Source: Marsupella aquatica (taxonomy: Eukaryota; Plantae; Marchantiophyta). From it: a stretch of 64,000 nucleotides of DNA. A model generated the notes under the pieces. That model saw only the letters and a list, made by a program, of their open reading frames with translations, was not told the DNA's origin and made no database searches. Position 1 is the first letter of the stretch, and each line of letters opens with the position of its first letter. The DNA is taken from positions 3,392,490-3,456,489 of the forward strand of contig OZ316893.1 in the NCBI GenBank assembly GCA_973895155.1, given 5' to 3'. This document shows positions 2,321-31,400 of this stretch, one piece after another. The position numbers were made by a program, and so were the translations under genes.

Positions 2321-3934
2321 CCTGACAAACGGAACGCATAAGCAGTACTGGGTCCCTTGTCGAATGTGTACAGGAGTCAACTACACACATTTTATTTTAT
2401 ACAAAGGAAACCATCAGTTGATTATAGAAGAGTTGTCGGATAAGTCCTGTAGAAGATTGTTAATACTGATAACATCGTACAAAAGGAAATTCATACTTGA
2501 ATGAACGACCGTTCAAGTGAGATATAACGGCCTCGTGACAAGTGAGTCTTACGACAGCAATTATTAGCCTCTGGTTACTTGTAGCTTAAGGGTAGTGTCT
2601 AGAATACTTTAGACTGAATTTACAATAGTCACCTGTCTTTCAAACATTTTTTCCCCCTAAAAAGAAGCCCTCTAGGCCGCTTCTCGTAGATAGCAGGAGC
2701 TGGCAAATTCCAAACACCATAATTTACTTCTGCTAAGTGCGCTTGTAGAATCAGGATGAACCAAATTCAGTTTCGCTATCAATGGACATGCTTTGTGCTA
2801 GTCACCTCTCATGGCACACACAAGGCAGCAGTAGAATGAATCCATTTATTAGCAACAATCCACTCTGGACGTACGGCCCTGCAGGAACGCCACCTTCGGT
2901 TACAGAATTTACCCCCATCATTGAATCTAGCGCTACTATTTGGCCTGATGGCGTGACACTATCTGTAGTAACACTACCAGCATGTCGAGGGGCAATTGTT
3001 TGTGAGCAAACAATTAGGTACACCATTTTCACAAAGTGGCTCGAGTGAATGTGGCTACTTTGGCTAATTTCCTCCTTCAGAAATGACAACTTAAAACTAA
3101 AGAGGTTGGTTTTAAACTCGCTTGGACAGAGAGATTCTAGATATTCAAGCCTGTGACATACAGCATGGTGTACCTAAATTGGAACTTTCCAGATCGAATC
3201 ATCCATAGAGACCTGAAGCCTTAGGAGCGGAAAATAGGAGACATCGGCTTGTCCAAGTTTGTAAAAAAATGACAAAGGGGAAGCTCCGTATTCTGCAGAA
3301 CCCTCGGCTACATGCCCAATAACGTACTTTACTACCCCAGGTGTACGTGCTGAGCACGACGGAGGAATCTCACCAAGACAACGAATGCAGGTGCTTTGCA
3401 TACTTAACGAGACAGAATGTTTTGTAGGAATAGTCAAATGATAGACTCAGAGATGGAGAGTAGTTAATATGGAAACCACATGTCCTGAGTGAGAGTTCTA
3501 ACTCTTTCAAAAATCATCCGTTGACAATCTTGCAACTACAGACACAAAAAAATGTATATGATTTTGGTTGGGTGCTGTACATTCACCGTTTCAAATCACC
3601 CTCTCCCTGTGCGTTGTCAACCCATGTGTTCGGCTGCCTGCTCTGACTCAAACAGGCAGCCTGCTCACTATCCAGCAGCCCTTCTACTGAGAAAGGCAAA
3701 CTGGCAACTACGTACATCAAGGACCGGCAACCTTGATCTCTAAAAGAAAATGCAACCTCGGCTGTGTTTTCTACAAAATTCCTTGGCTCAAATACATGAG
3801 CAGATAAGAAGAAAGGAAATATTATCTAGAGGCCAGATGGCTATTTCAAAAGCCACGAGACTCCCCACTACAAATACCAATTTCCTTGCCTTCCGAGCAA
3901 TACATCTCTCTCTACTCTACAACAATGGCCGTTC

Positions 3935-10858: not shown

Positions 10859-12860
10859 ATGAAAGGTGCTACCATCTCCGATGACACGACGAGTACTTGC
10901 TCGACTCAATCCATGTTTAATGACAGCTGCCAGGCTAAGCTGCAGGAGTTGAATACAAGCCTAGACAGCTTACATGTTGATGAGCGTCCTAAGAAGGACC
11001 CTATCGTGATCAAAGTGTAGGGTCGAGCACCTGTAGAATTTCTCGCTGAAGACCCGCAGTTTCAGAAGACCCTTTCTGAGGGTGGTTCTAATCCGAGCGC
11101 TGTTGTGGATAAATGGGCAGTCAACCGCTTGACTCGATTTCGAGAGTTCAGAGGATGGGATACGACAGTTGCATTCGAGGACCTCTCTTTGGCTGAATGT
11201 GCCTCAATTCTAATCAAGTTTTTTTAGCAGATCTGTAAGAAGGACGACAACTTGTATCCAACCCAGACATTAATGGGATTATACCGTGCATTCCATCGAA
11301 CACTGAGGCGCCGACAGGAAGTGCGAATTGTCCAAACAGGGAAGGACGAGCCCATGTTTCATATGCGCGAGAGTCCTTTGTTTAAGCAAGTTGGCATTGC
11401 TTGCGTGTTAGCCATGGAACGCTCAAGATCTAATGGTGCTAATTTGCCTCGCAAAAAGGCATCTGTCATCTCATTGGCTGATGAGTCCACCATTTTGTCT
11501 CACCCTTGCACATCCACTGTTCATCCTCGTGGCCTGCAACGTCGTGCAGTGTATTTCCTTATGTTTCAATTTGCCATTCGTGGAGGCGACGAGTTACATC
11601 GATTGGCAAAGACAAACTTCGAAATTGGCTGCAATGAGAATGGACCATTTGTAAAATACGATGAGCGTCTATCCAGGAACTACAAAGTTGGTTTTGGTCG
11701 GTATCAAGATGAGCATTTTCGTCCTGCTGTAACCAGCTACGACACTTCCATGGTTGAAACTATTCAGAGTTTGATTTCTCACTTGCCTGCTGCTGGCATA
11801 TTTCTTTTTTATTAGTGATAGTCCCCACACTCATGCATGGTACTCAACCCAACGTGTATCTATGAAGAAGTTGAGTGGCATTCTGAAGGAAATACATAGG
11901 GAATGTGGTTTGATTACAGACGGTGTCATGATTTTCTCTTTAAGTTATAAAAAAAATTGTTTGTTTTAATATGTTATAGATTATATAAGTAGTTTAGTAG
12001 TTAGATTATTAAATTTAGACTTTATTAACTTCTTTAGCTATATTAACGGACTATAGTAGTTCCACCAATGCATATGAGTAGTTCTATCAATGTATATGAG
12101 TAGCTCTACCAACGCACAATAGTTCTACCAACGCACAGTAGGTCCACTAACGCATAATAGGTCCACCAACGTATAGTAGGACCACCAACGCACAGCAGGT
12201 CCACCAACGCACAATAGTTCTACCAATGCACAGTAGGTCCACCAACACACAGTAGTTCCACCTACTAAAAGTAATTTCACCAACTATGAACAGTACTAGC
12301 ACACTCTTAGGTATTTGATGTTTGCCACTTGGCCTTCATCCAAGTGCTTGGGCTTGATCCATGCCCTCTTGGTGTGCACTATAAATAAAGTGGTGAGGGG
12401 CACTCTCCCCTCATTTCGCAGTGTTTATCATTCAAGGTTGTGAAGCTCTTTTGTGCCTTGAACATAGTAGTGGGGCGTCCTTTGGCCCGGATAGCAAAAG
12501 AATGAGTGGTAGACTTATAGATGGGACCTTAGGGAATAAGGTTTCTTTGGGAATAAGGTTTCTTTGGGAATATAGGTTTCTTTGGGAATATATGGGACTC
12601 GTATGGCGACTGAAGGCGTTCCTACAGAAGTTGGGATGATAATTACAGGCCATAAGAGCCAAGGTGCCTACTCTCGATATGATCGCAGCACAGAGTTGAA
12701 GGTCATAGCGGCCCAGAAATGCGTCAGTGGTTCATCCAGCTTTGAAGCAAACTTTCATAAGGAGATAGAACGCTTCAAGCAGAAGGTGGTAAATAGAGAT
12801 GACGACGATGGCTCGCCTAACAAACGGAAGAAGGGAGATGAAGGTACTCTTGTGCTACTT
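10859..12860 (+). pseudogene. Crypton-like (DUF3504-type) tyrosine recombinase, decayed and interrupted by a solo LTR
   Basis: In-order motifs: KWAVNRL..F; ILIKFF*QICKKDDNLYP..L; FAIRGGDELHRL (catalytic R); WYSTQRVSMKKLSGILKEIHRECG; and, after the insertion, TRMATEGVP...ITGHKSQGAYSRY (H...Y nucleophile). In-frame stops and a frameshift are present. Confidence 0.75.
11924..12519 (+). mobile_element. Solo LTR (~596 bp) inserted in the tyrosine recombinase
   Basis: Starts TGTCA and ends TTATA (probably TTACA decayed). 5-bp TSD GACGG (11919-23) / GATGG (12520-24). TATAAATA at ~12380 and 19-bp tandem repeats at ~12058-12265. Removing it rejoins ...GLITD-GTLGNK. Confidence 0.7.
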
Positions 12861-14938
12861 CTGTCATGTCAATCAGGATGTAGATCTGCAGCCTTTTGAA
12901 TATATGCATCCTTACTAATTTGTGTAATTTTTTGGCTGATGCAGATATGGCTCCCGCTGTTGGGTACATCCCTGCAACGGCGGGTCCAGGAGTGCAAGAG
13001 ACTCCTGCAATGATCGAGAGCCCTACCACAACTGAGGCAACAATTGCTCTTAATGAGATGGTTCCTATGGTAATTGAGTTGACTCCCATGATTGAGAGTG
13101 AATTATCTTGTGAAGTGAGTGCAGATGGCAAGGTCGACTGGAAGGATGACGGCTGGGTTGACGAGTACAATTGGGATGATCATTTTGAGAATTTGCAGCC
13201 CAGCTCTGTTGTTGTGAATCCTGTCCAGGCACTTTTTACAAAAGTTCAATGGATCACCAACTGCACTATTTCGATTTCTATTGGAAAGCTCGGGAACTAA
13301 TGTCGGAGTTACTTGTAGTTACTTGTAGATTGATTGTAGTAAGCTGCCTGCATGGCACTTTTGCTCAGTAGTTAGGACGTCCGTTAGACATAGATATTAG
13401 AGACAGTAGATACTAGTATTACTTGCACATGGTTTTGTCAGACAAACCACACTGTTCACGAGAATTGGTCAGATGACCCTTATTGATGTAATTTTTTCAA
13501 TTGTTTCTCAATAAAGTTTCACTCTCCACAGCGGGAGTTTTCATTTTCAAAAAAGTTATATCAACCGTATGTAAACCGTATAAAATAATGAGATATCCTC
13601 CACCCAAAAAACCCTAACATGGCAGCAGCCTAAAGCCCCAAAAAACATTACAACCACCCAATGACCTTAACGTGTAAGATAAGTGAGATAAGTGCGGTCT
13701 GGTCTAGGGTTCCTAGTCTGGTAACCTTCGTAACCAGACTAGAAAATGAAGAGAGCCTGACGGGAACCTGACTGGAGGTTTGTCAGGTGGTTGTAGCTCT
13801 AAATATATAGGATAAGTAGGGCGTGTCAAAGTCTCCCATAACCAAAGTTTTACAGTTTTTTTTTTTTAAATCTATCACCCTTAGGGGGTATTTATTTTGG
13901 TAGCTCATAATGATTTTGTCCTGGTCATAATATTGTTTTATGCCCTGAGCATAACTGAGTTACACTTGTGCTTTGACAAGCCCTTATTGCCTGTGTTGGG
14001 GTTACTAGCATGTAACCTTGTGAAGGAAAAGTGTAAAAAACCTGACAGGTGGCTATAGCGCACAACATATAGGATAATTGTGGTCGTTGGATCTAGCTGG
14101 GGTTACTCGCATGGGACTTTCTGACCTGAAAGTGAGGAAAACCTGCCCAGTGGTTGTAGCGCACAACATACAGGATGATGGCTGTCGGGTTTGGGATCAC
14201 TAGCATGTAACCCCTGTGACCAGAAAGTGAAGAAAGTTACCTGACCGGTGGTTGTAGCACACAACATATAGGATAATGGTGGTCGGGTCCGGGGTTACTA
14301 GCTATTAGACGCTCCATGGACCCAACACTAGACACAAATCCTGAATCCCAACCACAGTCCACTACCAATTCAGATGTTGGTGAAGGTGACACAAATGACC
14401 AGAGCCCTCCTACTGCATACAAGGACCTAGATTTATATGCAAATCCTTTGGATACCTCATATGTACCAACCTTGAAATCGGTGTGGATCCTCCCAAGGTG
14501 TCTCATCAATCCAGATTATTAATCTTTGTTGTGTCCTCGATTTGATGTACCACTGATCTAGAACTTGTCTTGGTCGAACATGGACTAACCCAAGTGCTTG
14601 CAAAAAGGACGACACTATGTGAGAAAACAATAGTGCTCTACAAAAAAGTTGCTTAGGTGATTGGACAATTGTCACTAGACTCAAGTAAATAAGAGGTTCC
14701 ACTGTCAAAGTAAGGCATTATCAGCTGTGCAGCAGTGGCGATCGAGGCCATCAGAGAAGCACGTGTTCTAAGTATTGAGTGGAATGAATGTGGCCCTGAA
14801 GCCGGTTGGAAACTGTGAGGAGGGGGTCTGGTCTCTTCAACAACAATGTGGCTAGATTGATTAAAATCAGAGAGGTCTGTATGCTCAGACACATCCACCA
14901 TGAGATTTCCTCTATGACAGCTTCTGCCTGCACCACTC

Positions 14939-15268
14939 TGTCACACCATTCTGAGTAGTGTAGTAGTATATCGTGCTATTAGAGTATGTACGTTTGGTAT
15001 GAGTGCTATTGGAGCCGATAAGGTTCTGTCAGGTTTGTGTGAGAGGGTACTTCTCACTTGTGAGGCATTGAAAGGTCATCTTTCAATGTTGAGCCTTGGA
15101 GAGAGAGGAGCTTGAGTGTGGCTATGGTGGCTGTGAGCTCCGCTTGTGTAACGTGGATTCCTTGGGTAGTGCAAGGTGCGTTGGCTTGACATACGTGTGT
15201 GATCGGATCGGTGCGGGATCGATGGGGTATTGTTGACCGAGATCATTGTGCCGATTGTATGGAGATTA
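14939..15268 (+). repeat. Terminal repeat A1 (330 bp)
   Basis: Matches 24245-24574 with 3 G/A differences by eye. Confidence 0.95.
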
Positions 15269-15536
15269 CATTGAAAGATCACATTCGAAATCTGTTGTAC
15301 GGACTGTGCGGATAGAAGTTCGATTGATTGAGTTGTCGATGGTTCGTGGTAGCTCGGATCGTGTGTTGTTATCGAACAGATCGTTGGTTTCTTGACCTGT
15401 ATCGTTGTTGTCCGATCGGCTTGCTTCCCGATCGATGTACAGATCTGTGATTGGTGACAGGTTTTGAGTTGGAGGTCGATTGATGATTCGTGGAGGAAAG
15501 CGAATGTTGAGTAGATGTTGGACAGTGGAAGTCGAT

Positions 15537-16085
15537 CCGTGAGGCTTCAGATCCGATTGCCGGCTACTGTGAGGCTTCAGATCTGATTGTCGGCTACTGT
15601 GGGGCTTCAGATCTGATTGCCGGCTATTGTTGGATGATGTTGGCAAGGCGCAGGTAAAGCGACGGCTCTTTTCCTGAAGGAACGGAGCTGCCAATGCCCC
15701 GTGCGACGATATCATCGTTTCAGTGAAAGAAACGAGGGTCAAAGGTGTTGAATCAAGCTGCTGCCAGTTCTGTGGAAGGGCTGCATTTTTCATGAAGGAA
15801 ATCGACAGTTTTCGGGAGCTTTTCGTGAAGGAAGTAGTCATTTTTGGGGTCAGGTGTGAGGCGCACGAGGTCACCCATCCCGAAAGTGCTCGTGTGAGGC
15901 GACGCGTGAGGTCACCCATCCCGAAAGTGCTCCCAACCGTGAGCGCGAAGTCACCCATCGCGAGCGCAGGCAGGTGCGAGGTCGAGGTCACCCATCCCGG
16001 GGCTATTCCGGGCCGTGAGCGCGAGGGGAGGCACAAGGTCGAGCACGAGGAGGTCACCCATCCCGGGGCTATTCCCGGCCGCGAG
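15537..16085 (+). repeat. Tandem repeats in the retrotransposon 5' leader
   Basis: 3 x 30-bp GTGAGGCTTCAGATC.GATTG.CGGCTA.T (~15539-15630) and 5 x GA(G/A)GTCACCCATC (~15867-16065); the region is CG-rich. Confidence 0.85.
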
Positions 16086-16541
16086 CGCTTAACTGGCAAG
16101 TTCTCATCCCACCTTGTGTACACACAAGCTTTGACAACTTGTTGTTTAGATTCAAGCGTCAGGGGGCTTTATACACTTCCCGGTTTGTTTAGAGGCCTAT
16201 TCTAGGCCAAATCAGAGGCAGTTTGAGAGTTTTTGATACTTCTGAGTCCATCTAGACTCACAGATTGAACCAATTTTGCCTTGGTTCTCATCTACAACAT
16301 TGGAGGGCCATTGTGAAGCCTATTATGAAGGCTCTTCCTTGAACCTTATGCACATTGTCATATTGATTTGCATTTGCTTTTGTGTGGAGAGTTGAATGGT
16401 ATCCATTCTTGTTTCTGGATCCTCTTCACACATGTTTCCTGTTTATGCGCCATGTTAGTTTCGTGTGGGCGCTTGATTCCATAGGAGTGATCCGGGTTTG
16501 CAACTGGACATTCTAGTGTGCTGTGTATTTCTCTCTTGGTG

Positions 16542-18550
16542 ATGTTGGAGTGATGCCCAACACACCATGGTGAGTGCTTGTGGTGCTGACAGGGATAGAT
16601 TGCCCTTAGGGTTAGCACATAGATTAGGTTAGGGTTGGTCACCACAGATTCTTTTGGTGCTGCTGGATTACCCGATGGACGACGGACCAGTTTCACTCGG
16701 AGTGGGGCATAGTTTCGGCCAGCGGCATTGGTAGCAGTTAGCAGTGCAGCTTCAGACAGTGATTCTGATGAGGACTCAGTGACCAGTTCTCCTCATCATC
16801 AGGTGGTTGCACCTTTGTTGTGGGATATGGACGAGATGTACGGGGCTACAAAGGGCCCACGACGATACTCTGGTGCAGTTGGCACAATTGATCTGGATGA
16901 CTTCATCCAGGAGTTTGATACGTGGTGCGATATGCAGACATTGCGTAATGTCACGTTGTTTACCCCTTTCATGGCATGGAAGGGATTATTCCAGCATTTG
17001 GAGGGGCCACCAATGGATGACTACCATGAGTTTCGGAAGGCTCATTTGGTTGAGATTGAGGCATGGAGGCAGCATTGGTCACCTAATTACGTGTCCATCA
17101 CCTATGGCACTAGTGCGGCTGCCCAACCAATTGCCACAGTTGCTGCTTCTTCTAGCAGCACTAGCCAGAGTGGCACACCATCCACCAGCAGCACTCCAGC
17201 AGCATCCACCACTACTCCTGCCGGTGTGATTGTGACAGGAACTAGAGTTGCGCCAGCATTTAATCCTGTGGTGGAATTCTTTGAGGTACTGAAGCAGAAC
17301 TATCAGGGTGTGAGAACTGATAAGTTGAAGGGTCTTCAGGAGTTCCAACGCAAGACTGGAGAAAGCCTACGTGAGGCATACACACGTATGCGCAGATTGA
17401 TCACTATCACCAAGGGAGTGACAGAGGCTCAGGCAGTCCAGTTTTGGTATGCAATTCTGGACAGAGAATTGCGACGCAGAGTGAGAGATGTCACTCTGCT
17501 TAGGGATGCAGATCCCACATTAGCAGTTGTTTTCACCCTTTCTGAGCGCATTGAGCTCAATATGGTGAATGAGAAGGTGGTGACTTTCGGATTTGCCAAG
17601 GAAGCACCAAAGGTTGCATCTACATCCACACCACAGCCTACTGCACGGAAGAGCCAGAGGGAGAAGCCTACTGCATGAGAGTCTACCAGCCAGAGACCTG
17701 TGCCCTCTTATGCTGGACAACAGTCAGGATGTTGGACCTGTGGTGGGGATCATGCACAGAGATATTGTCCAGATCATAGAGGATCAGGGGGAGCATCAGC
17801 GCCTGATCAGCGACAGTGTGATCACTGTGGAGCTCCTGGACACACCAAGGATAGGTGTTTCTCACTCCACCCTGAGTTACGGAGAGGAGGATCCCGTACA
17901 CATGATCAGGGAAGAGGAGGAGGAGGTAGAGGTGGTGGACGTGGTCGTGGCATGCCACATGCAAGGAGACAGGGAGGTGACGCTGCCCCTGCTATAACCA
18001 TAGATCTAAAGGATGCTAAGATTGCTCAATTGGAGCAACAACTAGCTGCCATGGCTAGTTCCCAGGTGAGACCTAATTCTGGTGATGGGGCATTTACATC
18101 CTATGGACCTTCCACATCCCATGGTCCTTCCACATCTTATGGAGCTGATGGAGACCTTGCCACCATGGGATTCATGTGTGGCACTGCACATATTGATGCA
18201 TCAGCAGCTTTGACACGTGGGGCAGCCAAAGCTCTTGAGCCCTGAGGAGCAGTAGTGGAGTTAGATCCACAAAGGGGGGATGCACGTCGGCAGACAAAGC
18301 TTCCTCAGTCTTTTACATTGTCAGAGACAGTTCAGACTACCTCTATGAACCCGGTTCGGACAAACCCTGATGTGGGTAAGTTGGCAGAATCAGGTAGTGA
18401 TGCAGCAGGGATGACAGGTACCTTGCTGGGGGCGGCTACTGCCATAGTACGCACCCCATTATTTTTAGCGACAGACATGCTGAACTTGGGAGTTGGTCCT
18501 GCAGAAGTGTTTAGATTGGCAGCTACACTCTGTGAGGACACTGCAAGTTG
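16542..18550 (+). pseudogene. gag: gag with two zinc knuckles, interrupted by in-frame stops
   Basis: One frame from ATG 16542 through ORFs 16728, 17700 and 18255. Retrotrans_gag-like FQRKTGESLREAYTRM; knuckles CWTCGGDHAQRYC and CDHCGAPGHTKDRC; RGG-rich tract. Confidence 0.85.
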
Positions 18551-19479
18551 CTTCCCATGCAGAAGCAACTTGCAGTGTTGATGCAGTGAAGACCATGCCA
18601 CCTACTGCTACTAGTGAGACATGGCATGCAGCAGCAGCGAGGTTGGTGGATTTACCAGCACGCCCTGCATTTGAGAGGACTAGGTTTAAACCTAGTGTTG
18701 TGTCATTGGATAATCGGAGTGGTATCTTCCGATTAGTTGGGCCTTCTGGAGCAGTATACCAGCCAGAGAGAGTGTTACTAGATACTGGTGCTCAGCCCTT
18801 GATGTTGGGGAAGTCTGCCATACGTGGATTGGGATTGCGTCCAGAGGATTTGGAGGATTGTCCCTTTCCCATTCAGAATTCATTGGGGGGACCTACACCT
18901 ACACAGCATATCACCAGGAGACCACTTGATTTGAGGATTCAAGAAGGTCATACCACAGATAGCTCACAGATACAGGCGCGAGCTATTCTAACTAAGGCAG
19001 AGTCATATGATGTGTTGGTGGGATGTACAGTGCTCTACCCCATGGGATTTATTCTTGATTTTTGGGAGGAATCAGTGTCATATAGACCTGATTGGCAATC
19101 AGGAGATGCTCGATTGAGCAAATTGCCAGTGAGATTTAGTGGACCTATGGGAGGCCCTAAATCCACACCATTGTCTTTGGCAGCATTCAGTGGTGTAATT
19201 GCTGGACCTGATGATTTGATTGAGGGTAATGCGCATGCAGCCAATGTTCCACCATTGGAGGAGTCTCATGAGGAGCACATCATGCGAGGATTACCTGTTG
19301 GCAGTGTTGTGCCACCAGTGTGGGGCACTGCACAAGCCTTGCCACAGGCAACAGCACGATTGGTACATGATGCATGGCGTCATGCTTTTACACCACAGTT
19401 AGGAGCAGAGCAGTCTCTTGTAGATGGACCTGTGACTCTTTCACCATTGGATACCACTCCTATTGCTTGGCAGTATCCA

Positions 19480-20440
19480 CCGGAGGGTATTTGTTTGTTG
19501 GATCTTTTTGGTGGGATTAGCACTGGATTGGCTGCTGTTCTTCAGGCAGGAATTCCTGTGCGTCGTTATTTGTATGTGGAGATAGATGAGACAACACGGA
19601 GGGTCTCATTGCGACATGTGGCTATGTTGGTGGATAGATATCCACAGTTGCTGCCAGTGGATGCTGTTCGTGGTTATCAGCATGCACTACCTGCTGATAT
19701 TTCATTGTTGGGGGCGGATCATCTACATCGTGTTGGCCCCATTGATTTGGTGATTGCTGGTTGGCCATGTCAGGGCCAATCTAGAGCTGGCATTGGGCAT
19801 GGACTTCATGATCCACGCTCTACATTGTTTTGGGAGATGTTACGGGTGCTGCGTCACCTCCAGCTACATCAGACACAGTCTCCAGCATACATTTTGGAGA
19901 ATGTGCCATTGTTAGGTGATGATCGTAGTCGGATTGTTGCCAGTGTTCACCAGGTGAGGTCTTGGATTGGACCTGTTGTGTTATTGGATGCTGCACGTGT
20001 GGGTTCTCGTGCACATCGTCCACGCTTATGGTGGACTAATTTGATCCCATGTGAGGTGCTGAAGCGCGCATTTGACAGCATTCCACGCTCACCAGCCTTA
20101 GTGGTGGATGATATTTTGGATCTAGGGCGTCGTGCACAGGGTGTGACCCAACCTGATAGACCTCCATTGGCAATGGTCAATGCAGTTGGGTGCCCACGTT
20201 GTGCATTACCCACTCTTGTAAGCCACTCTGCTTCATATGCATTCAGAGCAGGTGGCCCTGGACTTGTATGGGACACAGCTCTCCAGCAGTTAGTGGAGCC
20301 TACTGCTGATGAGAGAGAGCGTGCTATGGGATTTTTGACTGGCACCACTGCAATTGCCTCTATGTCAGAGGGTTTGCGGCGCCAGGTTCTTGGTCAAGCA
20401 ATGGATTTGAATTGTTTGACTTGGATTATCAGCTTGGGAG
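19480..20440 (+). CDS. DNMT3-like C5-cytosine methyltransferase domain within pol (no internal stop)
   Basis: Motif I LDLFGGISTG; II VEID; IV IDLVIAGWPCQ (catalytic Cys); VI ILENV; VIII AHRPRLWWTN; IX ERERAMGF; X RRQVLGQAM. Confidence 0.92.
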
Positions 20441-22875
20441 TAGCTAAACAGTTGCGGATGCGCTCTGCCGGAATTACTGATTGTCCCTTGGTGAGCTTGC
20501 GATCCACTGAGACAGTATTGACCACAGCTGGGGGCGAGCAGACAGTCCATGGACCTATGACAGGATTGGTGGTTGGACAGATTGTTGAGCAGGAAGGGAC
20601 TGCTCAATCTATTGCTAAATAGCAATCATCGGCTATCTCTTCTACCCTACAAAGAGATATTAGGGATTTGGTAGAGAGTTGGGAACCACAGCTTGGCCCT
20701 AAATTAACAGGGGAGGAGAGACGTCGCATGCATCGAAATCTGAAGAGTTATTGGAATTGTTTTGCATTCAGCATGAAGGATTTGGGGACATTGAAGGGCC
20801 CTGGTATTCAGATTGAATTGGCTAGTGATGCGCCAATCTTTCGTAGACCATACCGTTATAGTGACATGGAGAGAGCTCTGATTCAAAGCAGAACTCAAGA
20901 TTTGTTGGAGGCTGGATTGGTGGAGATTTCATATGGGGAGTATGCATCTGCCACAGTGATGCCAGCCAAGAAGGATGTGCATGGCAATTACACAGATAGG
21001 CGCATGTGTGGTGATTACAGACCTATTAATCGCCAGACAAAATCTGATCGATATGCCATGCCCACACCTGAGGAGATCTTTGATGCTGTGGGGCATGCAA
21101 AGGTTTTCAGTTCATTGGATCTGAGGGCAGGATACCATCAGCTTCCAATTAGGCATGCTGACAGGTCCAAGACAGCATTCTGGGGGATTGATTCTTATGG
21201 CAAAGATCGTTTGTATCAATGGTTATTCTTACCATTTGGGTTGAAGAATGCACCAGCTGAGTTCCAGAGAGTCATGGATCGAATCCTTGCAGGTTTGGAT
21301 TTTGTCAGATGTTATATTGATGATATTTTGGTCTATTCTTCTACTGTGGAAGAACATCAGCAGCACTTGCAGACTGTGTTGGAGAGATTGAGAGCACATG
21401 GGTTGAAGCTCCATCCTAGCAAGTGTAAGTTCTTCCAACACCAGATTGAGTATTTGGGCCACACCATATACCTAGGGGGATTGGGTGTACAGCAGACTAA
21501 AGTGGAGGCCATTACACAGATTCCTTGTCCTACTGATGTGAGTAGAGTTCGTGCATTCTTGGGATTGGCGAGCTACTACAAGAGGTATGTTAAAGGATTT
21601 AGCCAGCTTGCTAAACCTTTGACCATACTCACTAAGTTGGATCAGGAATGGATTTGGGGTGATGACCAGGAGCATGCCTTTTAGGAGTTGAAGCAAAGGT
21701 TGGCATCATCCCCTATTTTGAGAAGACCCATTTCAGGCAGACCATTTCAGCTACACACTGATTGGAGTGGAGTAGGACTTGGAGCAGTGCTGACTCAGAA
21801 GGATGATGAGGGGAATGAGTTTGTTGTGGCTTATGCCAGTAGATCAAACAATTCAGCAGAGGCTAAGTATAGCTCTTATGAGGGAGAGTGTTTGGCAGCA
21901 GTGTGGGCTGTTGCACACTTTCGTTGCTACTTGTTTGGTAACCCCTTCACCTTGATCACTGATCATCAGCCTCTTAAGTGGTTAATGGAGTCTGACAAGC
22001 TTACAGGGAAGCTTGCACGATGGGCATTGTTGTTATAGGAGTATGATTTCCAGGTGGTGCATAGGCCTGGAAAAGTGAACTTGGATGCAGATGGATTAAG
22101 CCGCAATCCATGTACCAGTCAGCAGGATGAGACTGGAGCCAGATGGCATGATGAGTCAGATAGGGAGATGGTGCCAGGATGGCATGCATCTGCCTTTCTT
22201 TGTTGGGTGCCAGCATACAGTGGATCTGTGGACTCTACCTCATTGGATGGAGTGGATGATGAGTCTTCAGATGTGGATGTTGGTGAAGTAACTTCTGGAC
22301 AGCAAGATATTCACAATGATGTGAGAGTGTTGGAATATCTGCGCAATAGTTCTATTGTTGGCAGTGTTGATGCCAAGGAACGTGACAGGGTTCTACAGAG
22401 AGCCAAGAGGTTTCGATGGGAGGGAAACCATCTTTTGAGAGTACTGCATGATGGTAGGATGTTGGTGGTACCAAAACCATCACAACGAGTATATTTGGTG
22501 CGACATGCGCACGAGGAGTTGGGTCACTTTGGTGTGAAGCGCACTTACAGCTTGCTGCAGACGCAGTATTAGTGGTGTGGTATGCACACTCATGTCCAGC
22601 AGTTGATAGCTAAGTGTGTGGTATGTGACAGAGTGAGAGCATCATTTAATGCTCCCACTCCCCAGTTGCACCCATTACCGATCATGGGTTTGGGATATCG
22701 TTGGAGTTTGGATTTTGTTGGTCCATTACCTCTTACCCAACGTCATAATCGGTATGTTTTGGTCATGGTGGAGCACTTCTCCAAGTGGATTGAGCTAGTG
22801 GCGTTGCCAGATAAAGCCAGTGGAGGAGTTGCTGCTACATTTTTGGATCATGTACTCAGTCATTTTGGAGCACCA

Positions 22876-23241
22876 GCTGAGGTGTTGACTGATCAGGGAA
22901 CTGAGTTCCGTGGAGAGTTTGAGAGTTTGTGTAAACAAGCTCTGATTGATCATCGTACTACCTCTCGTGATCATCCTGAGGCAGATGGATTAGCTGAGAG
23001 AGTTGTGCAAACTGTGAAGAGAGGATTGCGTAAGTATGGCTTGCAGGTTGGTCATCTCGCTGAGGTGTTGACTGATCAGGGAACTGAGTTCCGTGGAGAG
23101 TTTGAGAGTTTGTGTAAACAAGCTCTGATTGATCATCGCACTACCTCTCGTGATCATCCTGAGGCAGATGGATTAGCTGAGAGAGTTGTGCAAACTGTGA
23201 AGAGAGGATTGCGTAAGTATGGCTTGCAGGTTGGTCATCTG
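22876..23241 (+). repeat. In-frame 183-bp tandem duplication inside the integrase core
   Basis: AEVLTDQG...LQVGHL occurs twice (22876-23058 and 23059-23241), with about one internal mismatch. Confidence 0.95.
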
Positions 23242-23790
23242 GGAGATTGGGATCTCCAGCTACCTTGGTTAGCTATGGGCTACCGTTTCAGTCGGCAAGC
23301 ATCACTTGCATCCTTCTCACCCTACTTTTTGCTCTATGGTAGAGAGCCAGATTTGCCAGCAGCTATTCGTCGTCATGCTGCACCAGTTGTGAACTTGGAT
23401 GATCCTGATGTTTGGGTCAAGGTGTGTTCAGAGAGAGCACGGGTATTTCAGAGAGTGATGCCCATGGCTTTTGACAACCTTGCCATTGCCCAACATCGTG
23501 ATACTTTGAGGTATGCCACTATTCGTGGAGGAGGTTACCGTGCAAGCATTCGACGATTTCATCCTAGTGATTATGTTTATTTGCAGCAGACAGCACCCAC
23601 GACACTTGATGTGACCGCAGGCCGGACAATCTTACGTGTGCGTGAAGTGTTGCCTTCTGGTGTCCTGATGTTGGAGGGACGCGATGGTATGGTTTGGAAG
23701 GATCATGTGCGCAACTGTGCACCATGTCACCTTCCCAACATTGATGGTACAGTAGATCCAAGCTTGGCACATGTTCGTGCTGGCTTGAAA

Positions 23791-23928
23791 TGTATGTTGT
23801 GTGGATCTGCTCAGGGAGCAACTACTATGTTGATTTGTGATAAGTGTTCTAGAGGATGGCACATGTCATGTTTGACACCACCATTGCAGGTGATTCCTAG
23901 TGGATCATGGTTGTGTCCTCAGTGTCGG
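23791..23928 (+). CDS. PHD finger at the integrase C-terminus
   Basis: CMLC...MLICDKCSRGWHMSCLTPPL..IPSGSWLCPQC (C4HC3 with the conserved W). Confidence 0.92.
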
Positions 23929-24095
23929 TGAAGCCGACTAGTTATCATTTGTGTTCTCTTGGTAGATATGGATTGCAGGTAGGTGATCGATGGGGCTCAC
24001 TTGCACCCGGCCTCCTGATCTTCACACCTAAAAAGGTGTATATCAACCTTGTAGAACTCATGGCTAGCTAGAGTTAGGGGACCTTACTCCCAGCT

Positions 24096-24104
24096 AGGGG
24101 GGCG
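24096..24104 (+). promoter_or_regulatory. Short polypurine-tract-like motif immediately before repeat B1
   Basis: AGGGGGGCG directly before ATTGTG at the B1 start. Confidence 0.55.
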
Positions 24105-24105
24105 A

Positions 24106-24711
24106 TTGTGGGTTTTGGACATGTGTGGACATGAGTTCCACTTGTATTCCATTCTCTTGTATTTGTGATGTGGCAGTGTGACTATGTCTGGATGTATGTG
24201 ACAAGCGATGTATGTTGTGTAGCGATATGTATGCGCACGACAGCTGTCACACCATTCTGAGTAGTGTAGTAGTATATCATGCTATTAGAGTATGTACGTT
24301 TGGTATGAGTGCTATTGGAGCCGATAAGGTTCTGTCAGGTTTGTGTGAGAGGGTACTTCTCACTTGTGAGGCATTGAAAGGTCATCTTTCAATGTTGAGC
24401 CTTGGAGAGAGAGGAGCTTGAGTGTGGCTATGGTGGCTGTGAGCTCCGCTTGTGTAACGTGGATTCCTTGAGTAGTGCAAGGTGCGTTGGCTTGACATAC
24501 GTGTGTGATCGGATCGGTGCGGGATCGATGGGGTATTGTTGACCGAGATCGTTGTGCCGATTGTATGGAGATTATTGTGGGGTTTGGACATGTGTGGACA
24601 TGAGTTCCACTTGTATTCCATTCTCTTGTATTTGTGATGTGGCAGTGTGACTATGTCTGGATGTATGTGACAAGCGATGTATGTTGTGTAGCGATATGTA
24701 TGCGCACGACA
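24106..24711 (+). repeat. 3' repeat block B1-GC-A2-B2
   Basis: B1 (24106-24242) and B2 (24575-24711) are 137 bp with one mismatch; A2 is 24245-24574. Confidence 0.95.
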
Positions 24712-27154
24712 ACTCCTAAAATTAAACAAGAAACTCTTGGAATGGGATTCCAAGCTCTGATGAGGACAGCCAAAATAGATGGCAAATATGAGGCAAATAT
24801 GAATTGCAGATGGCTTCATGGAATTGCACTACTCACACTGATTTGTTAGCACATTTTGCAGATTAACATGCATTGAATGTAGTATCAAAATATCAATTTA
24901 AGTGACAGTGAATGTACACACCTGATAGAAGAGTCTCAAATTTTTACAGAATCAGACTTTCAATCGAGCAGTGTCGCATGGAAAGTGAAGATGGACTCCA
25001 AGTCTCCCATGAGTGTTGATTGCATGGTAGCAGATGTGGAGCCTATCCCAAGTATCCAATAATCATCTTCTCTCTTGCATTGTTATTCTACAAATGTGCC
25101 GGACAATTTTCAAGTTGGAATTTGAACTCTGACTTAGTTTAGGTATGGCAGCACAGTAGAACTCTGGATTATTGGCCGGGTTTGTGATGAAGCCAAGCAG
25201 GTAGCAATGGCTTGTAGAGCAGATGCAGAGCTACGCTATTGAGAAAGTTGGCAACATGAGACTTTTGGTGCGCTTATAGATGGCTCTATTTTTGTTGCAT
25301 AGCTGAGGCCACGTCGGCCTGCCTAGCAGCTGAAAGAAAGCATTTCACCCTGATGATGGAAGAAGTGCTGAGCACCACCCTAAGCTATGGAGGGAGGTGC
25401 TGCAAAACTTTGCCAGCCTTTGTGGGTCCCATTAGTCAGGTCCCCACCCAGTCACAGGGCCTATAAGCCAAAATCTGATGGCACTCCTTAAATCCAGGGA
25501 GATCCAAAGTCATAGGTCTAGAGCGATTTGCTTGAATGATAAACCTCCAAAATGGAAAGAAAAGGATACTTGATGGGACCCCTGAGGTTTTGGTTACTTT
25601 GATTTGAGGTCTATCAAGGTCTTTCAACAGTCTAGATCACTATGTGGTCCCATCAAGTAACACTTTTCATTTTAATTGTGCATTAAAGCTTATACCTCCA
25701 TAAGCCAAGTACAATTTTGAGAAAGAATATTCTTAGCATCTCCTTGACACAAATTAGCATGTGCACCCCTGGAAAGTGAAAAATCTTAATCTAAGATTAC
25801 CTTGCTTCTCACCCATGATTCAAACTCACAAGGATGAAGGGAAATGTTGTATTAAAGGGGTTTCCTACATTTCTGATATCACCAAAGCCAAAGAAGGAAG
25901 GATGGAAGATCCTATCCAAACCCCACAAGATCTTATAACTTGTTGTAGGATGACGCTAAGTCCCACCAAGTCACAGGTGTAGTAGCCAAAATCTGAGTGC
26001 TTGCCTTTAATCTAGAAAGGACTACCGTTAAAAAGAAGTGGAGAAAATTTAGATAAGAAAGTTTCCCAGTATCTTGTCTACACAGTGTAACTTAAAAGTT
26101 TCCCTTGGTCTCACCCACCATTCTGGCATCTCACATCGGATGGAAGAGGAAACGTTGCTAAATTTGACATGGTTTCCTCTATTTCTCAGATCCCAAGAGC
26201 CAAGGAAGGAAGGACAAAAGGTCCCAACCCTACATAATTCACCAGCTTTTCTTAGTTTCATTAACCAGTTTCCCATCAAGTCACAAGGTGTATTAGCCAA
26301 ATCTGACTGTTATCCTAAATCAAAGGGTAGTAAGTCAGATTTAGAGGATTAAAAAAGAAGAAGATTCCTCTTAAATGGGCTGTCCACCTTTTACACCTTC
26401 ACTACTTGACACCCTTTTGGTTTCCAAAAACTTTGCAACAACAAAGTTGACCATTAATATCTCCCTTTTCATTTGGAGGATTTGGCCCTTCTTGGACCGA
26501 ATCACTCTGATATCTCTAGTTTTCAAGGATAATTGAGAGAGTTTTGATTTTCTTAAGCTCATTCCATTGCAATGACCACACTTTATACTTCCATACTAAC
26601 TTTGTCAATTAGTACATTCTTTGATACAATTTTTAATTATTTTGCCACTAAAGATGTTCAACTTGATAATACTATCATAATTTTCTTGTATTTACAAATA
26701 TGAGAACAAGTTCAACAAAGTAACCAAGGTGTGAATATACAAAAACCATGGTATATTTATAAATACAATAAAAAAATAATCATGGTCTCAATATACAAAA
26801 ACCATGGTATATTTGTAGATATAATAAAAATCATTACAGTATTATAAATTAAAACATCCATAGTGACAATCTAGTTACAATTCTTTGATATCTAATGAAA
26901 TCTTTGAAATCTTATTTCTTGGTTTTGCTACATATGGTCTATATCAGATCTTTCCAATGTTCCAAATATCATCAAATTTCATTGAAAATTGAGGGATTCA
27001 CAAATTTTCAATCATGATTATCTCATTGTAAATAACATAAAAACAATACTACTGCTATAAGTGACGTGGCTGTGTAATTGAAGCTGTGAAAAGGAAAGAC
27101 CCCAAGAAGGCCAAAGAGGGCCGAGGGGTGTACCCACATTTCCCATATACCCAA

Positions 27155-27397: not shown

Positions 27398-28424
27398 CCC
27401 CCTTCTGTCCTCCTGTTGCGCCCCCTTTGATCCCTCATCCGTTTCCCAAATCCCCACTACTGAGAGAGTGCCACACCTGCCCCTCCCGTGCCCGTGCCAG
27501 TGCCAGTGCCAGTGGATGGGGCGGACTTCGAGAACGAACAATTTTAGCCGCGAGTTTTGACTCGGAGAACAACAACAGTGCCGTCGTTCGAAGAACACAA
27601 AGAGAATCGCAGGGTTTTTGGTTTTTGGAGGGGATTGTGATTCGTTTCTCAACAAAGCGCATCGTCCTGCTCCTCTTCCACATCGCCCATCCGGCTCCGC
27701 ATCAGTGAGAAGTTGATTAAGACGAGGCCCTGATACGAAGGAGGGAGCTCAGGTCTGTTCGCCATAGCTCCGTCGGTCTTTGCGAGCGCTCGGTTGGTTC
27801 TTCTATTCGTTTGCAACTAGAATTGTTCAATCTGAGTGAGAAGTCGTTCAAGTCGTTCGCTGCCAGGTCGAAAGCATTTTCGCAAGCTCCCGCAAAGAAA
27901 CCTAGCTCGATCGATCCACTCTCACTCTGTCTCGGTTTCGTTCGCTACTCACTACGTTAGGTTTAAGCATTTTGTCCAAACTGGGCACTGAATTTTTAGC
28001 TTTGCAAACACTCTGTCTCCGCACGGACGGGCTTTTCGAGCTTGCAACGATCTTAGATTTTGACTTACTAAAATTTCTGAATGATGGCTCTTGCAGTTCA
28101 CTTGAATGTCTGAGGCAATCGGGACTCTCGGTTGTCATGGTCTAACTAGCAACTGACAGAAATTAAGAATAATCTGGCCCGGATTCTCCCTGCGCACGGA
28201 CGGACGGACAATATTTTGTTAGGGAGAGCCCTCACTCCGCTTGGGAAATTTATTGGCTGCGTTGGCGTAGCAGCTAAGGAATGCGTGAAGGGAGGGAGGA
28301 TTTAGATTTGTGACCCTAGGCTCTCGACGACGGCAACTGCACGTTTTGAGGAGCCTGTCGAGGGGCGGGCAAGTACAGCAGTGACACAGACAGAGTGACG
28401 GCAGGGATTCAGATTTAGGAGGGA

Positions 28425-31400
28425 ATGGACCTAATCCGGAAAATGTCCGGATTAAGTTCTTCCCAGGATCTGAGTGCAGCTGTGGAGCAGACCAAGACGG
28501 AAGACAAATGGGAAGAATCGTCCGACAGGAACGGAGGAGAAGAAGAAGAAGTGGAGCAGGAGGAGGAGGAGAGTAATGACGTTCTTCTCCACGATGCCGA
28601 GCAGGACGACGGGGACATTTTCGAGGACGCGGCACCAGCACTCGGGCAGCAACAAAGGCAGCAGCAGGCTGACCTCGAGGAAGAGGACCGGGAAGATGAC
28701 GAGCAGAGAGTGACCAGCACAAACGATGAGCAAGAGGCGCCGGCTGCTGCTTTTCCAGTTCGTGTCGCACAGCCTGGTTCCGACGATGCTGATGGCGCCA
28801 GGGAAGTAGAGGAGGACGAAGATGGCATGGCCAGTCACGGAACTGGGGAGAGTTTCGATAGTGCGTTGGAGCGCATGGCTGCATCGTCAGAGGCTGGCTT
28901 CGACGGGGCCTCGAGCCCTAAAATGTCGTCCCCGGTAGGTTCCATGCAAGGCCCTGTTTTACTTGGAAACCCTCCCACTGCCTTGAGCCCGGCCCAGCAG
29001 GGTGCCCTCATCCGGCTCAATGAGATGCTTAGCGGGGATTCCTCTATGGACACCTCCGTGATCGATAATTCCACGAGAGAGGAGTTCAAGTCCCGTGTCA
29101 TCAAACTTGCTCATAGTCGTGGCCAGAGCGAAGAGGATCTTAGCTTTGTTAGTATTGTGGATGCACTTCTGCCCTTGGTTCCTGAAAAGTTGTCGGAAGA
29201 CCGTGAAGCTGCCGAACCTGGGGATTCTGCAGGTACCGGCGAAGATGTCAAGGGGCTTCAGTGTCGCATGCCTAAAACGAAGCTGTTTGCCGAAGAGGAG
29301 GAGGAGGAGGAGAAGGCTGTTGAGAATGGTGTTTTGGAGAATGGTAATGGTCATGCCAAGGAGCTAAAGGAGAATGGTGACGAGAACAAAGCTCCCCAAG
29401 AGCAGGATGAGCCTCAGATCAAACAGGAAGAAACTCCTCTTAGCTCGGACACCAAAGAAGCGGGCGATGTACCTGTGAATTTCGTGCTGGATGGTAACGG
29501 GGAACCGGAAGAAACCAATGGACAGGTGAATACTCAGGACGATTTGCCTTTGAAGAGCAGATCGATCCCTTCCGGTTTGGATGACAGTCAATTGCTTCCC
29601 CATTCAGAAAACGAGAGCACAAATGCAGAACCGAAAGAAAATGGGGACAATGTTGAACACTCGTCACCAACAGAGGTGCCTGAGGAAGCTACCGGAATTA
29701 ATGATTTTTTCGAAAGCGCAGACGAATTTCAGACTAGCGGAATCCCCCAAGTCGTCCCTCCAGCTCCTGAAGGCCGCGATGGTGTGGAAAACTTTCCCCA
29801 AGCGAACGGTGAAGCTGATGAAGAGAATTTGGCTGTCAGCCCCGATGATGAGGAGGGAGAGGATGAAGAAGATGATGAAGAAAACGAAGATGATGAAGAC
29901 AACGAAGACGACGAGGACAGTATTATGGAACCGTCGGAAGCTTTAGCAGCATTGATTCGTGGTGCGCAAACCACAAGTGGAGGCGAGGATGTAGCCCCGC
30001 CTTCGTTGGGCTCAGCAGGGCCTTCTTTGCCTGCACGACCCACACGTCATGTCAGGTCTTCTTTACCATCACTGGAGCCAGCTGCTCGTGTCTCACAGCA
30101 GCCTCGTAGTACTGAAGCTGCCACGATTCGGTCGTCCAGTTCTGCTGATGAAAGTCAGGCCGATGGTGAAGCCGCCGATGGCAATGAGGAGACACGAGAG
30201 AAGCTTCAAGCGATACGCGTCAAATTTCTTCGTCTTGCCTTAAGACTAGGGCAGTCTCCACACAATGTCGTTGTTGCACAGGTTCTCTACAGGCTTGGAT
30301 TGGCAGAGCAGCTGAGAGGTGGGAGAGGTAACAGCCGAAATACAGCTTTCAGTTTCGACCGAGCTAGTACTATTGCGGAGGAGCAGGAGAGAGCCGGGCC
30401 AGAGGAGCTCGACTTTGCTTGCACCATAATGATGCTGGGCAAGACAGGCGTTGGGAAGAGTGCCACCATAAACTCTATCTTTGATGAGGCAAAGACTATA
30501 ACTAATGCTTTCAGCCCTTCTACTAACAAGGTGCAGGTAATCACAGGGCATGTGCATGGCATCAAAGTAAGGGTGATAGACACACCAGGTCTTCTACCGT
30601 CTGTTGTTGATCAAAGACACAATGAGAGGATAATGACGTCGGTCAAAGGTGTCATCAAGAAGCAGTCTCCTGACATTGTGCTATATTTTGACCGCCTAGA
30701 TATGCAAAGCAGAGATTATGGGGATTTGCCGTTACTGCGTACCATCACAGACACATTTGGGGCTGCAGTGTGGTTCAATGCCATTGTCGTATTGACCCAT
30801 GCTTCTTCTGCTCCCCCTGATGGTCCGAATGGACTTCCTCTGAGCTATGAGATGTTTGTTGCTCAGCGGTCCCATGTGGTGCAACAAACGATACGACAGG
30901 CGGCAGGGGACATGCGGCTTATGAATCCGGTGTCACTTGTGGAGAATCATAGAGCATGTAGAGTTAACCGAACGGGGGACAGAGTGCTTCCCAATGGGCA
31001 GGTCTGGAAGCCTCAGCTTCTGCTGCTGTGTTTCGCTTCAAAGATTCTTGCTGAAGCCAATTCTCTTTTGAAGCTTCAAGATAATTCCCCGGGGAAGCCC
31101 TTTGGGCAACGATCCAGAGTGCCTCCTCTGCCATTCCTTCTCTCCTCTCTTCTTCAGTCTCGTACTCCGCTGAAGCTGCCAGATGAGCAACTTGAAGATG
31201 AGCATGAATCGGATGAGGAGCTTGAGGAAGACGACTCGTCTGATGAAGAAGAGGATTATGACCAGCTGCCTCCTTTTAGGCGACTCGCGAAGGAGGAAAT
31301 AGCCGAGCTTGACGAAGAGAACCGTGTAAATTATTTTGAAGAGCTTGCTGAGAGGGAGAGGTTGTTTCAAAAGAAGCAGTGGAAGGACGAGTTGAAGAGG

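Follow-up and report, generated by a model that had tools for sequence, protein, structure and literature searches.

A decayed Ty3/Gypsy-type retrotransposon with a DNMT3-like methyltransferase domain and split terminal repeats in a leafy liverwort

What kind of retrotransposon carries its own DNMT3-like cytosine methyltransferase (DNMT), how would such an enzyme be produced, and how does the element that bears it integrate? These questions are raised by a locus of Marsupella aquatica that lies within the 64,000-nucleotide stretch of contig OZ316893.1 analyzed here (hereafter the window). The initial annotation had read positions 18493 to 23931 as one pol ORF of a Gypsy retrotransposon with the DNMT between protease and reverse transcriptase (RT). 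The element is a PHD-tailed, DNMT-bearing retrotransposon of Ty3/Gypsy type; this copy is dead, and its host is a leafy liverwort. The single ORF did not hold, as the frame is closed by stops at 20620, 21682, 22036, and 22570, and the first ATG of the frame carrying LLDTGA, DNMT, and RT is at 18595 and not at 18493. Also overlooked were the ends of the element (14939 to 24711), its split repeats, and its C-terminal PHD finger.

All features described below lie on the forward strand. The gag region (16827 to 18581), with zinc knuckles at 17730 and 17817, has no Pfam match in the window copy, where stops at 17676 and 18243 and a frame change near 18545 interrupt it; the relatives P0002 and L041 retain an unbroken Gag-PR-DNMT frame. 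The aspartic protease (PR; 18613 to 19140, LLDTGA at 18775) likewise lacks a Pfam match in the window copy, and Asp_protease_2 was matched in homologs. The RT (20680 to 21681, YIDD at 21313; Pfam RVT_1, 2.5e-35), whose top PDB matches are 4ol8 (1.1e-52) and the Ty3-G Gag-Pol 7q5b (1.1e-51), has a decay stop directly behind it at 21682, as does the RNase H (RH; 21685 to 22035; Pfam RT_RNaseH, 2.4e-36) at 22036. The integrase (IN; 22477 to 23240; Pfam rve, 4.5e-19) shows its D-D-E residues at 22711, 22891, and 22996, its zinc-binding part is interrupted by the stop at 22570, and a 183-bp tandem duplication occupies 22876 to 23240. No Chromo match was found after the integrase using Pfam; instead, a PHD finger and the final stop occupy 23791 to 23931 (Pfam PHD, 9e-11). 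Damage thus amounts to five decay stops, one frameshift, and one duplication, the sixth stop, at 20620, being conserved. The order PR-RT-RH-IN and an RT nearest to Ty3 make up a Gypsy domain set with a DDE integrase. A tyrosine-recombinase element (DIRS, PAT, or Ngaro) was rejected on the grounds of the rve match and the D-D-E residues; Pfam detected no tyrosine recombinase in the scanned forward-strand ORFs of the window or in 17 relatives.

The ends of the element combine Gypsy features with an unusual layout. TG…CA ends, a target site duplication (TSD), and a polypurine tract (PPT) are all present; two whole LTRs at both ends are not, the ends being A and B, permuted. The 4-bp TSD (ACTC, at 14935 to 14938 and 24712 to 24715) has 4-bp counterparts in L060, L072, L032, and L049, and a TSD was seen in all five copies with both ends located. 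Repeat A1 (14939 to 15268), which starts with TGTCA and is likely the promoter and R/U5 part of the LTR, is 99% identical to A2 (24245 to 24574; three differences in 330). Repeat B1 (24106 to 24242) finishes with CGACA and differs at one position in 137 from B2 (24575 to 24711), which lies head-to-tail with A2 and whose ACA closes the element. The order is therefore A1…B1-A2-B2 rather than paired LTRs at two ends. The PPT (24096 to 24105) lies directly 5′ of B1, and its motif is repeated in loci of the peat-moss-like family. The B1/A2 junction is palindromic (…GACA-GC-TGTC…, 24238 to 24249) and reproduces both integration ends internally; a CA-GC-TG junction within the LTR was found in the window and nine other loci. 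An origin of the B-A-B end by insertion of one LTR element into another was rejected because layout and junction recur in distant families. LTR-FINDER-based catalogues such as REXdb, as described in the accessible part of PMC6317226, demand paired LTRs, and elements of this permuted kind slip past LTR finders.

Directly after A1 lies a primer-binding site (15268 to 15279) that shows no tRNA-type TGG and is complementary to a predicted self-primer segment at 15078 to 15089, likely the RNA 5′ end; a second complementary arm lies upstream, near 15066 to 15074. In 261 other windows, examined as a control, the longest match was 10 nt. A complement of 10 to 17 nt was present in seven of the 10 copies with the A end located, two of the 10 lacked one of at least 8 nt, and a third had 8 nt only. 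Between families, the pairing shows a C:G to G:C swap. In all likelihood, the RNA would start near 15078 and prime itself in the manner of Tf1. Such a start, together with self-priming, implies that the working LTR runs from the PPT to the primer site (B+A) and that the product would be BA-internal-BA. The two BA ends would then be joined head-to-tail, giving the A2/B2 join, and the integrase would cleave both strands 3′ of CA in the palindrome of the other LTR, leaving normally processed ends and an A-internal-B-A-B insertion with a TSD; on balance, we favor this whole step by a modest degree. The split-repeat layout fits the integration of such a permuted 2-LTR circle. Foamy virus integrase reportedly cleaves palindromic LTR-LTR junctions, as set out in the available text of PMC1180852; a palindrome linking CA and TG ends that could be opened by integrase is common to both systems, whereas the foamy-virus palindrome is the LTR-LTR join itself and the one described here is inherited inside the LTR. 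The common A…B copies (seven of the 12 ends retrieved with one pattern) may come from a linear form cut at both palindromes or from a 1-LTR circle, and B1×B2 recombination could be an alternative source.

A rival reading, which we consider possible and distinctly less probable, holds that DIRS/PAT-style template switching maintains the split repeats by way of a linear intermediate in which B2 is finally copied from B1, without a ligated 2-LTR circle and with an integrase that handles ordinary linear ends. PAT and Ngaro elements share the A1-B1-A2-B2 layout (accessible part of PMC4157794). A symmetric circle moreover predicts A-B-A…B copies, and none was seen among the 11 5′ ends examined, which counts against the circle. 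The A2/B2 join, exact in all six scored copies, looks programmed rather than repaired; however, it consists exactly of the primer-site end and the PPT end, as expected from head-to-tail joining of LTRs. Template switching also faces the difficulty that self-primed strong-stop DNA would comprise A only, so that the usual first jump could not carry B2.

The DNMT domain spans about 19462 to 20460, is intronless and stop-free, and has intact PCQ and ENV motifs. As first described, it shares its frame with the LLDTGA of the protease and the YIDD of the RT, and its motifs are in order and unpermuted (LFGG at 19504, GWPCQ at 19759, ENV at 19897, AHRPR at 20011, ERERAMGF at 20311, and motif X at 20374). 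The Pfam DNA_methylase profile matched at an E value of 2.6e-11. The resemblance to DNMT3 rather than DRM, MET1, or CMT was borne out by both sequence and fold: among solved structures, DNMT3A ranked first by sequence (3e-13, against about 1e-4 for DRM and about 3e-3 for HhaI), and it was also the top Foldseek match (3e-19) of the AF2 model (pLDDT 86.6). Across 43 locus copies, 36 of which carry stops, the catalytic Cys and Asn are kept in all 43 and the Glu in 41. The dN/dS of the DNMT was 0.10 to 0.20 in nine between-family pairs, for which dS is mostly saturated, and 0.14 for L041/L042 at an unsaturated dS of 0.26. The DNMT is under purifying selection and is found across a large clade, which excludes a one-off capture.

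The in-frame amber stop and its CAR-YYA context (20620 to 20628) close ORF1 after the DNMT. Of 57 loci, 49 have TAR-CAR at the corresponding position, many of the peat-moss-like ones being near-copies and not independent, compared with about 1% stops per ordinary column. P0001, 87% identical to the window copy, terminates at the same place, as do, after the DNMT, all 23 hand-picked single-ORF proteins of the inner clade. Such conservation across the family led us to reject the stop as a product of decay. In L041, intact ORFs of 1369 and 1047 amino acids are parted by one TAG, and an intact relative with only that stop means that the DNMT ends the Gag-PR-DNMT frame and that RT-RH-IN-PHD likely needs readthrough. 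The placement of the DNMT between protease and RT therefore stands as an order of domains, but not as a part of the RT-containing ORF. Ribosomes would pass the UAG only rarely, very probably leaving Gag-PR-DNMT in large excess over RT and integrase.

This position bears on what the enzyme may do. It had been proposed that the DNMT is packaged as a Pol domain along with RT; the conserved stop, which places it at the end of the Gag-PR frame, would instead have it packaged in bulk, at capsid rather than simply RT levels. The protease would free the DNMT in the particle, the DNMT would methylate the cDNA before host surveillance, the cDNA would arrive resembling host chromatin, and the PHD finger would guide target-site choice, a sequence of events that we hold to be evenly balanced as a whole. 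The DNMT likely methylates CG in new cDNA, and methylation of cDNA by an element-borne DNMT was already proposed by de Mendoza et al. 2018 (PMC5890265, accessible text). Somewhat unlikely, in our estimation, is the reading that retains the architecture and makes the DNMT, instead of a camouflage enzyme for cDNA, an agent of self-restraint, acting on its own promoter or on other copies, or a DNA- or RNA-binding Gag module with low catalysis. Self-restraint is named as an option by de Mendoza et al., Gag-level abundance fits a structural function, and the KnitGypsy domain of Klebsormidium nitens produced no methylation in yeast, a result that its authors deem inconclusive; the related SymbioDIRS-Dnmt3 domains, in contrast, were shown to methylate CG in yeast (all in the available part of PMC5890265), and different families retain the catalytic Cys, Glu, and Asn despite saturated synonymous sites. 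The A repeat is not depleted of CG (0.82, against 0.22 to 0.48 in coding parts), which would suit such a role. CG at codon boundaries was 0.09 in the element, 0.35 in the intact L041, and 0.71 in the neighboring host gene, a depletion that speaks for the favored model but that host methylation alone can explain.

How RT, RNase H, and integrase are translated beyond the stop is suggested by its context. The TMV-type (type I) readthrough consensus is UAG followed by CAR-YYA (accessible text of PMC2754532), the arrangement found here and from which readthrough is predicted. The full CAR-YYA occurs in the window copy, L004, L041, L042, and L055, with three different amino acids used. It is absent at the stop of L048 and of the peat-moss-like family, which departs from the TMV type with CAA-CCC-ATG, missing the last YYA base and offering a Met at codon 3; reinitiation is possible in that family. 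Four sequences folded as RNA 3′ of the stop had no obvious structure in common. These ATG-bearing copies, together with six annotated bryophyte gene models that fuse DNMT to RT or RNase H, lend some weight to the view, which we regard as improbable, that RT-RH-IN is translated from an RNA that has been spliced, from a start of its own, or after reinitiation, in the manner of Ogre elements, which splice between Gag-PR and RT (accessible part of PMC6317226). Yet a single codon and no spacer separates the two ORFs, the first Met after the stop is at codon 36 in the window copy, 48 in L004, and 117 in L041, past the conserved start of the RT region and in L041 inside the RT, and CAR-YYA is preserved at the nucleotide level.

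Relatives were found in Marchantia, Calypogeia, Riccia, Sphagnum, and Closterium, and 535 clusters (50% identity) match at E<1e-30; two pattern matches in viral contigs were not confirmed. The death of the window copy and most fetched copies and a dN/dS of 0.36 to 0.81 among peat-moss-like copies might suggest that the DNMT stems from a host gene fragment captured recently and carried passively by a single copy or a few. This alternative can be taken as refuted, given these clusters, an equally relaxed RT in the same pairs (0.50 to 0.67), RT and DNMT trees that divide alike, and a summed contig depth over the DNMT equal to that over the RT in four runs, a measure that shows the DNMT covered like the RT and not copy number. 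On the opposite side of the RT and DNMT trees (built by a quick method and by FastTree without outgroup, the domains being element-borne only) lies a second architecture with the DNMT after RNase H, whose Ala/Gln-rich make-up suggests green-algal hosts. In the outer group, DNMT and RT share one ORF in 14 of 15 proteins, so Gag-level dosage is not required clade-wide.

The link to Klebsormidium elements made in the initial annotation is correct: the counterpart is KnitGypsy-Dnmt3, described in the accessible text of de Mendoza et al. 2018 (PMC5890265) as having Gypsy domains, an intronless unpermuted Dnmt3-like domain, a DIRS-like A1…B1-A2-B2 layout, and Ka/Ks < 0.2. The present element shares the domain set, the domain type, the split repeats, and purifying selection. 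It differs in that KnitGypsy holds the DNMT in one ORF with RT and RNase H, having acquired it in the K. nitens lineage according to the authors, whereas the present hosts are land plants, the DNMT is parted from RT by a conserved stop, and it is one of a far wider clade of such domains with two DNMT positions. Because DNMT and RT do not share an ORF, we regard the element as a relative and not a member of KnitGypsy-Dnmt3. Among the homology matches bearing organism names, none was from K. nitens. The predicted self-priming, the palindromic junction, and the TSD of the present element are absent from the accessible part of the published KnitGypsy account (PMC5890265). SymbioDIRS-Dnmt3 of Symbiodinium also has a Dnmt3-like domain in a split-repeat retroelement (PMC5890265, same portion), but with a tyrosine recombinase in place of the DDE integrase and 4-bp TSD. 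Tf1 and Tj1 of fission yeasts and the plant Tcn1 clade likewise have a primer site complementary to the LTR, a likeness that for our element is one of sequence only, and Tj1 requires an in-frame stop after Gag; as far as the available portions of PMC4600332 and PMC6317226 go, their LTRs are of the ordinary paired kind and no DNMT is mentioned, whereas here the stop follows PR-DNMT rather than Gag and the integrase is tailed by a PHD finger, not a chromodomain. The initial annotation knew of no characterized land-plant family, and literature searches outside subscription journals and Repbase returned no description of one, although the kind of element is itself published. No land-plant description appears in the accessible parts of 10.1101/363937, PMC11982613, PMC2864245, or PMC12344493, the last of which says only "streptophytes and dinoflagellates."

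Taken jointly, the explanation towards which we lean, by a small measure, is a dead Gypsy copy with Gag-PR-DNMT before a leaky stop, capsid-level DNMT, CG methylation of cDNA, and a circle opened at its palindrome. More speculatively, and with considerable doubt, the element may belong to an old, uncatalogued green-algal and bryophyte Gypsy superlineage that self-primes and passes through an obligate palindrome-opened 2-LTR circle, in which DNMT3 moved from the Pol to the Gag side of the leaky stop and many DNMTs per particle pre-methylate the cDNA, possibly marking which palindrome is cut.

These findings turn a curiosity of a single alga into a widespread lineage that occurs also in the genetic model Marchantia, and its presence there makes the question of why transposons carry an enzyme that silences them testable with existing methylation mutants. 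A concrete prediction follows from the stop, which puts the enzyme at capsid dosage. With its permuted LTR, the element also provides a natural system for asking whether circles can serve a DDE integrase as normal precursors, a notion that has been set aside for retroviruses. Finally, the ORF1s of these elements appear in annotations as hypothetical or methyltransferase genes of the host, which can inflate bryophyte DNMT counts.

The window contains a genuine DNMT-bearing Gypsy element, which occupies 14939-24711 (+) in the order A1-internal-PPT-B1-A2-B2, where A and B are parts of a split repeat, and is flanked by 4-bp duplications. Translation and Pfam identified at 18484-23931 (+) a frame with protease, C5-methyltransferase, RT, RNase H, integrase and PHD finger in that order, the protease motif LLDTGA lying at 18775 (+). 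The initial annotation had described a single pol ORF over 18493-23931 holding a complete methyltransferase domain between protease and RT. The domain was upheld (about 19462-20460, +; stop-free, motifs unpermuted), but the single ORF had to be abandoned, as stops at 20620, 21682, 22036 and 22570 break the frame. Moreover, gag is interrupted at 17676 and 18243 by stops and changes frame near 18545, and the integrase contains a 183-bp duplication. This copy is dead, despite A and B repeats that are less than 1% divergent (3/330 and 1/137 differences, respectively).

Several further features were seen in the window. A near-perfect 41-nt inverted repeat (18538-18578), at which sibling-copy contigs vary in length, adjoins the gag-protease frame change. 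The long 5′ leader carries a 41-nt motif four times (15867-16090), overlapped by a minus-strand open frame of 300 codons (15266-16168). The integrase catalytic spacing (22711-22998) is D-59-D-34-E, one residue shorter than the usual D-35-E. The element lies between an intronless ORF (28419-32315, +; 1298 aa) for a Toc132/120-type chloroplast import receptor and an inverted paralog (about 3922-6257, -), the two being 91% alike over 2.3 kb. The neighboring Toc GTPase gene shares 92-93% identity with its Calypogeia fissa counterpart, against 85-86% in Marchantia and Riccia and 77-78% in the top moss matches, which makes a leafy liverwort the most likely host. Tandem arrays with periods of 19, 35, and 26 nt occur at 12080-12303, 42764-43231, 57971-58527, and 62038-62297, the 35-nt family being present twice, about 15 kb apart.

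The methyltransferase domain matched Pfam DNA_methylase at 2.6e-11. Its proposed DNMT3-like rather than DRM-like character was borne out: among solved structures compared by sequence, DNMT3A was best (3e-13) versus about 1e-4 for DRM and about 3e-3 for HhaI, and an AlphaFold model built from 29 sequences (pLDDT 86.6) was structurally closest to DNMT3A/B (3e-19, TM about 0.65-0.70).

The domain is a family trait, and not the one-off capture considered at the outset. Word-indexed searches found relatives of greater length (72) and of similar length (246); 80 loci were retained out of 112 relatives from a metagenome scan, and a profile search yielded 535 clusters at E<1e-30. Named relatives came from Marchantia polymorpha (up to 73%), M. 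paleacea, Calypogeia, Riccia, three Sphagnum species, and Closterium. In a quick tree, most metagenome relatives clustered with the named Sphagnum proteins, while the window and the protein relative P0001 fell within a bryophyte clade of 28 rows (support 99). Contigs from four public runs, each of a different study, were as deep over the DNMT as over the RT, a depth that does not measure copy number. Among the best 150 of the 535 clusters, the DNMT followed RT/RNase H in 66, preceded RT in 17, stood alone in 48, and lay directly before the integrase in 19 entries lacking upstream sequence. The before-RT (15) and after-RNase-H (50) groups among 65 sequences with both domains formed two sides of one branch, with support of 88 in the RT tree and 99 in the DNMT tree (FastTree, unrooted). 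Either a single old capture followed by one move or the separate capture of two related genes fits these trees.

Three Marchantia gene models (Mp_4g09160, Mp_8g17980, and Mp_6g11220; P0002, P0004, and P0005), whose annotation reads hypothetical or methyltransferase protein, are the Gag-PR-DNMT ORF1 of this family. P0450, a DNMT-after-RNase-H relative, has an additional G-patch domain before the integrase. P0089, labeled [quoted passage not shown], is near-identical to the DNMT in a retroelement locus (L042:761-1750), so it probably represents eukaryotic DNA sorted into a bacterial genome bin.

Selection on the DNMT was assessed by dN/dS, which was 0.10-0.20 in nine between-family pairs, with dS mostly saturated, and 0.14 at dS 0.26 for the metagenome loci L041 and L042. 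Dead peat-moss-like copies gave 0.36-0.81, similar to RT. The catalytic Cys and Asn were retained in 43/43 locus copies.

We surveyed the site homologous to 20620 in 57 sequences (56 loci and the window) with RT just 3′ of the DNMT. TAG or TAA followed by CAR was found in 49; the others had a stop without CAR (1), a stop then an insertion (2), a sense codon (4), or a rearrangement (1). Ordinary columns show stops in about 1% of copies, with maxima of 10/43 (DNMT) and 10/29 (RT). Because many peat-moss-like loci are near-copies, the independent support amounts to about six lineages. The window and loci L004, L041, L042, and L055 carry the full CAR-YYA, the TMV readthrough consensus (PMC2754532), with YYA encoding Ser, Pro, or Leu; in the peat-moss-like family this stretch is CAA-CCC-ATG. 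But for this one TAG, L041 is intact; its two ORFs encode 1369 and 1047 aa, and the first Met of ORF2 is at codon 117. Judged from sequence, the stop at 20620 is a designed feature of the element and not decay. Leaving aside two truncated proteins and annotated bryophyte gene models, all 23 hand-picked inner-clade proteins end 54-181 aa past the DNMT, and 14/15 outer-group proteins continue into RT. Of the annotated bryophyte models that run beyond the DNMT, half (six) terminate after it and the other six are fused to RT or RH, perhaps through predicted splicing. Since the stop is conserved and proteins end after the DNMT, the latter would be produced at Gag level in the bryophyte-containing branch.

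The A1-internal-PPT-B1-A2-B2 layout was also found in loci L060 and L072, and partially in six more; TSDs were present in 5/5 copies with both ends. The B1/A2 junction is a palindrome, GACA-GC-TGTC, containing both integration ends. It recurs in nine loci, the distant L041 and L055 among them; four of these have GC as the spacer, and five have a decayed variant. The 12 nt directly 3′ of A1 are complementary to 15078-15089 within A (best of 261 control windows, 10 nt). Among ten copies with a located A end, two further loci being left unscored, the complement measured 10-17 nt in seven and 8 nt in one, and was absent from two; a compensating base-pair swap distinguishes the families. Tf1/Tj1-type self-priming is recognized by complementarity between primer site and LTR (PMC4600332), and by sequence the element bears this mark. 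A second complementary arm just upstream of the primer segment, present in both families, would conceal the 3′ copy of that segment.

Because the primer site lies after A and the PPT before B, we infer B+A as the working LTR and BA-internal-BA as the expected cDNA. The A2/B2 join, an exact A end plus B start in 6/6 copies scored, may arise like the join in a 2-LTR circle. If the other LTR's palindrome were then cut with a stagger after CA, the ends would be normal for integrase and the order A…B-A-B; cleavage of such palindromes is reported for foamy-virus integrase (PMC1180852). Some copies end at B1 (7 of the 12 ends detected with a single pattern, by which two B-A-B ends were missed). These may come from cutting at both palindromes, and recombination between B repeats fits them as well. 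A simple circle route is disfavored by the mirror A-B-A form being seen at 0/11 5′ ends, and therefore the cut would be biased or the route different.

The most likely role of the DNMT would be to methylate cDNA within the particle; cDNA methylation was proposed for DIRS elements by de Mendoza et al. (2018; PMC5890265). CG at codon boundaries is 0.09 in the window element, 0.35 in intact L041, and 0.71 in the neighboring host gene, a depletion that host methylation could explain.

A DNMT in a Gypsy element is already a published idea. KnitGypsy-Dnmt3 combines Gypsy domains, DIRS-like repeats, and Ka/Ks <0.2, with a capture placed in the Klebsormidium nitens lineage; the K. nitens domain was without activity in yeast, a result its authors call inconclusive (PMC5890265). 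The suspected kinship agrees with the shared domain set and DIRS-like repeats, and the window element works alike; however, the KnitGypsy-Dnmt3 DNMT lies in the RT ORF (PMC5890265), and here it does not. Marchantia does not occur in the main text or three readable supplements of that study (PMC5890265), nor do "methyltransferase", "PHD", or "Marchantia" in the paper on REXdb, which was built with a finder requiring paired LTRs. Our literature searches, with most subscription journals and Repbase outside their coverage, returned no land-plant account of such elements. What the present family adds is its land-plant range, the predicted leaky-stop placement of the DNMT, the predicted self-priming, and the permuted LTR.
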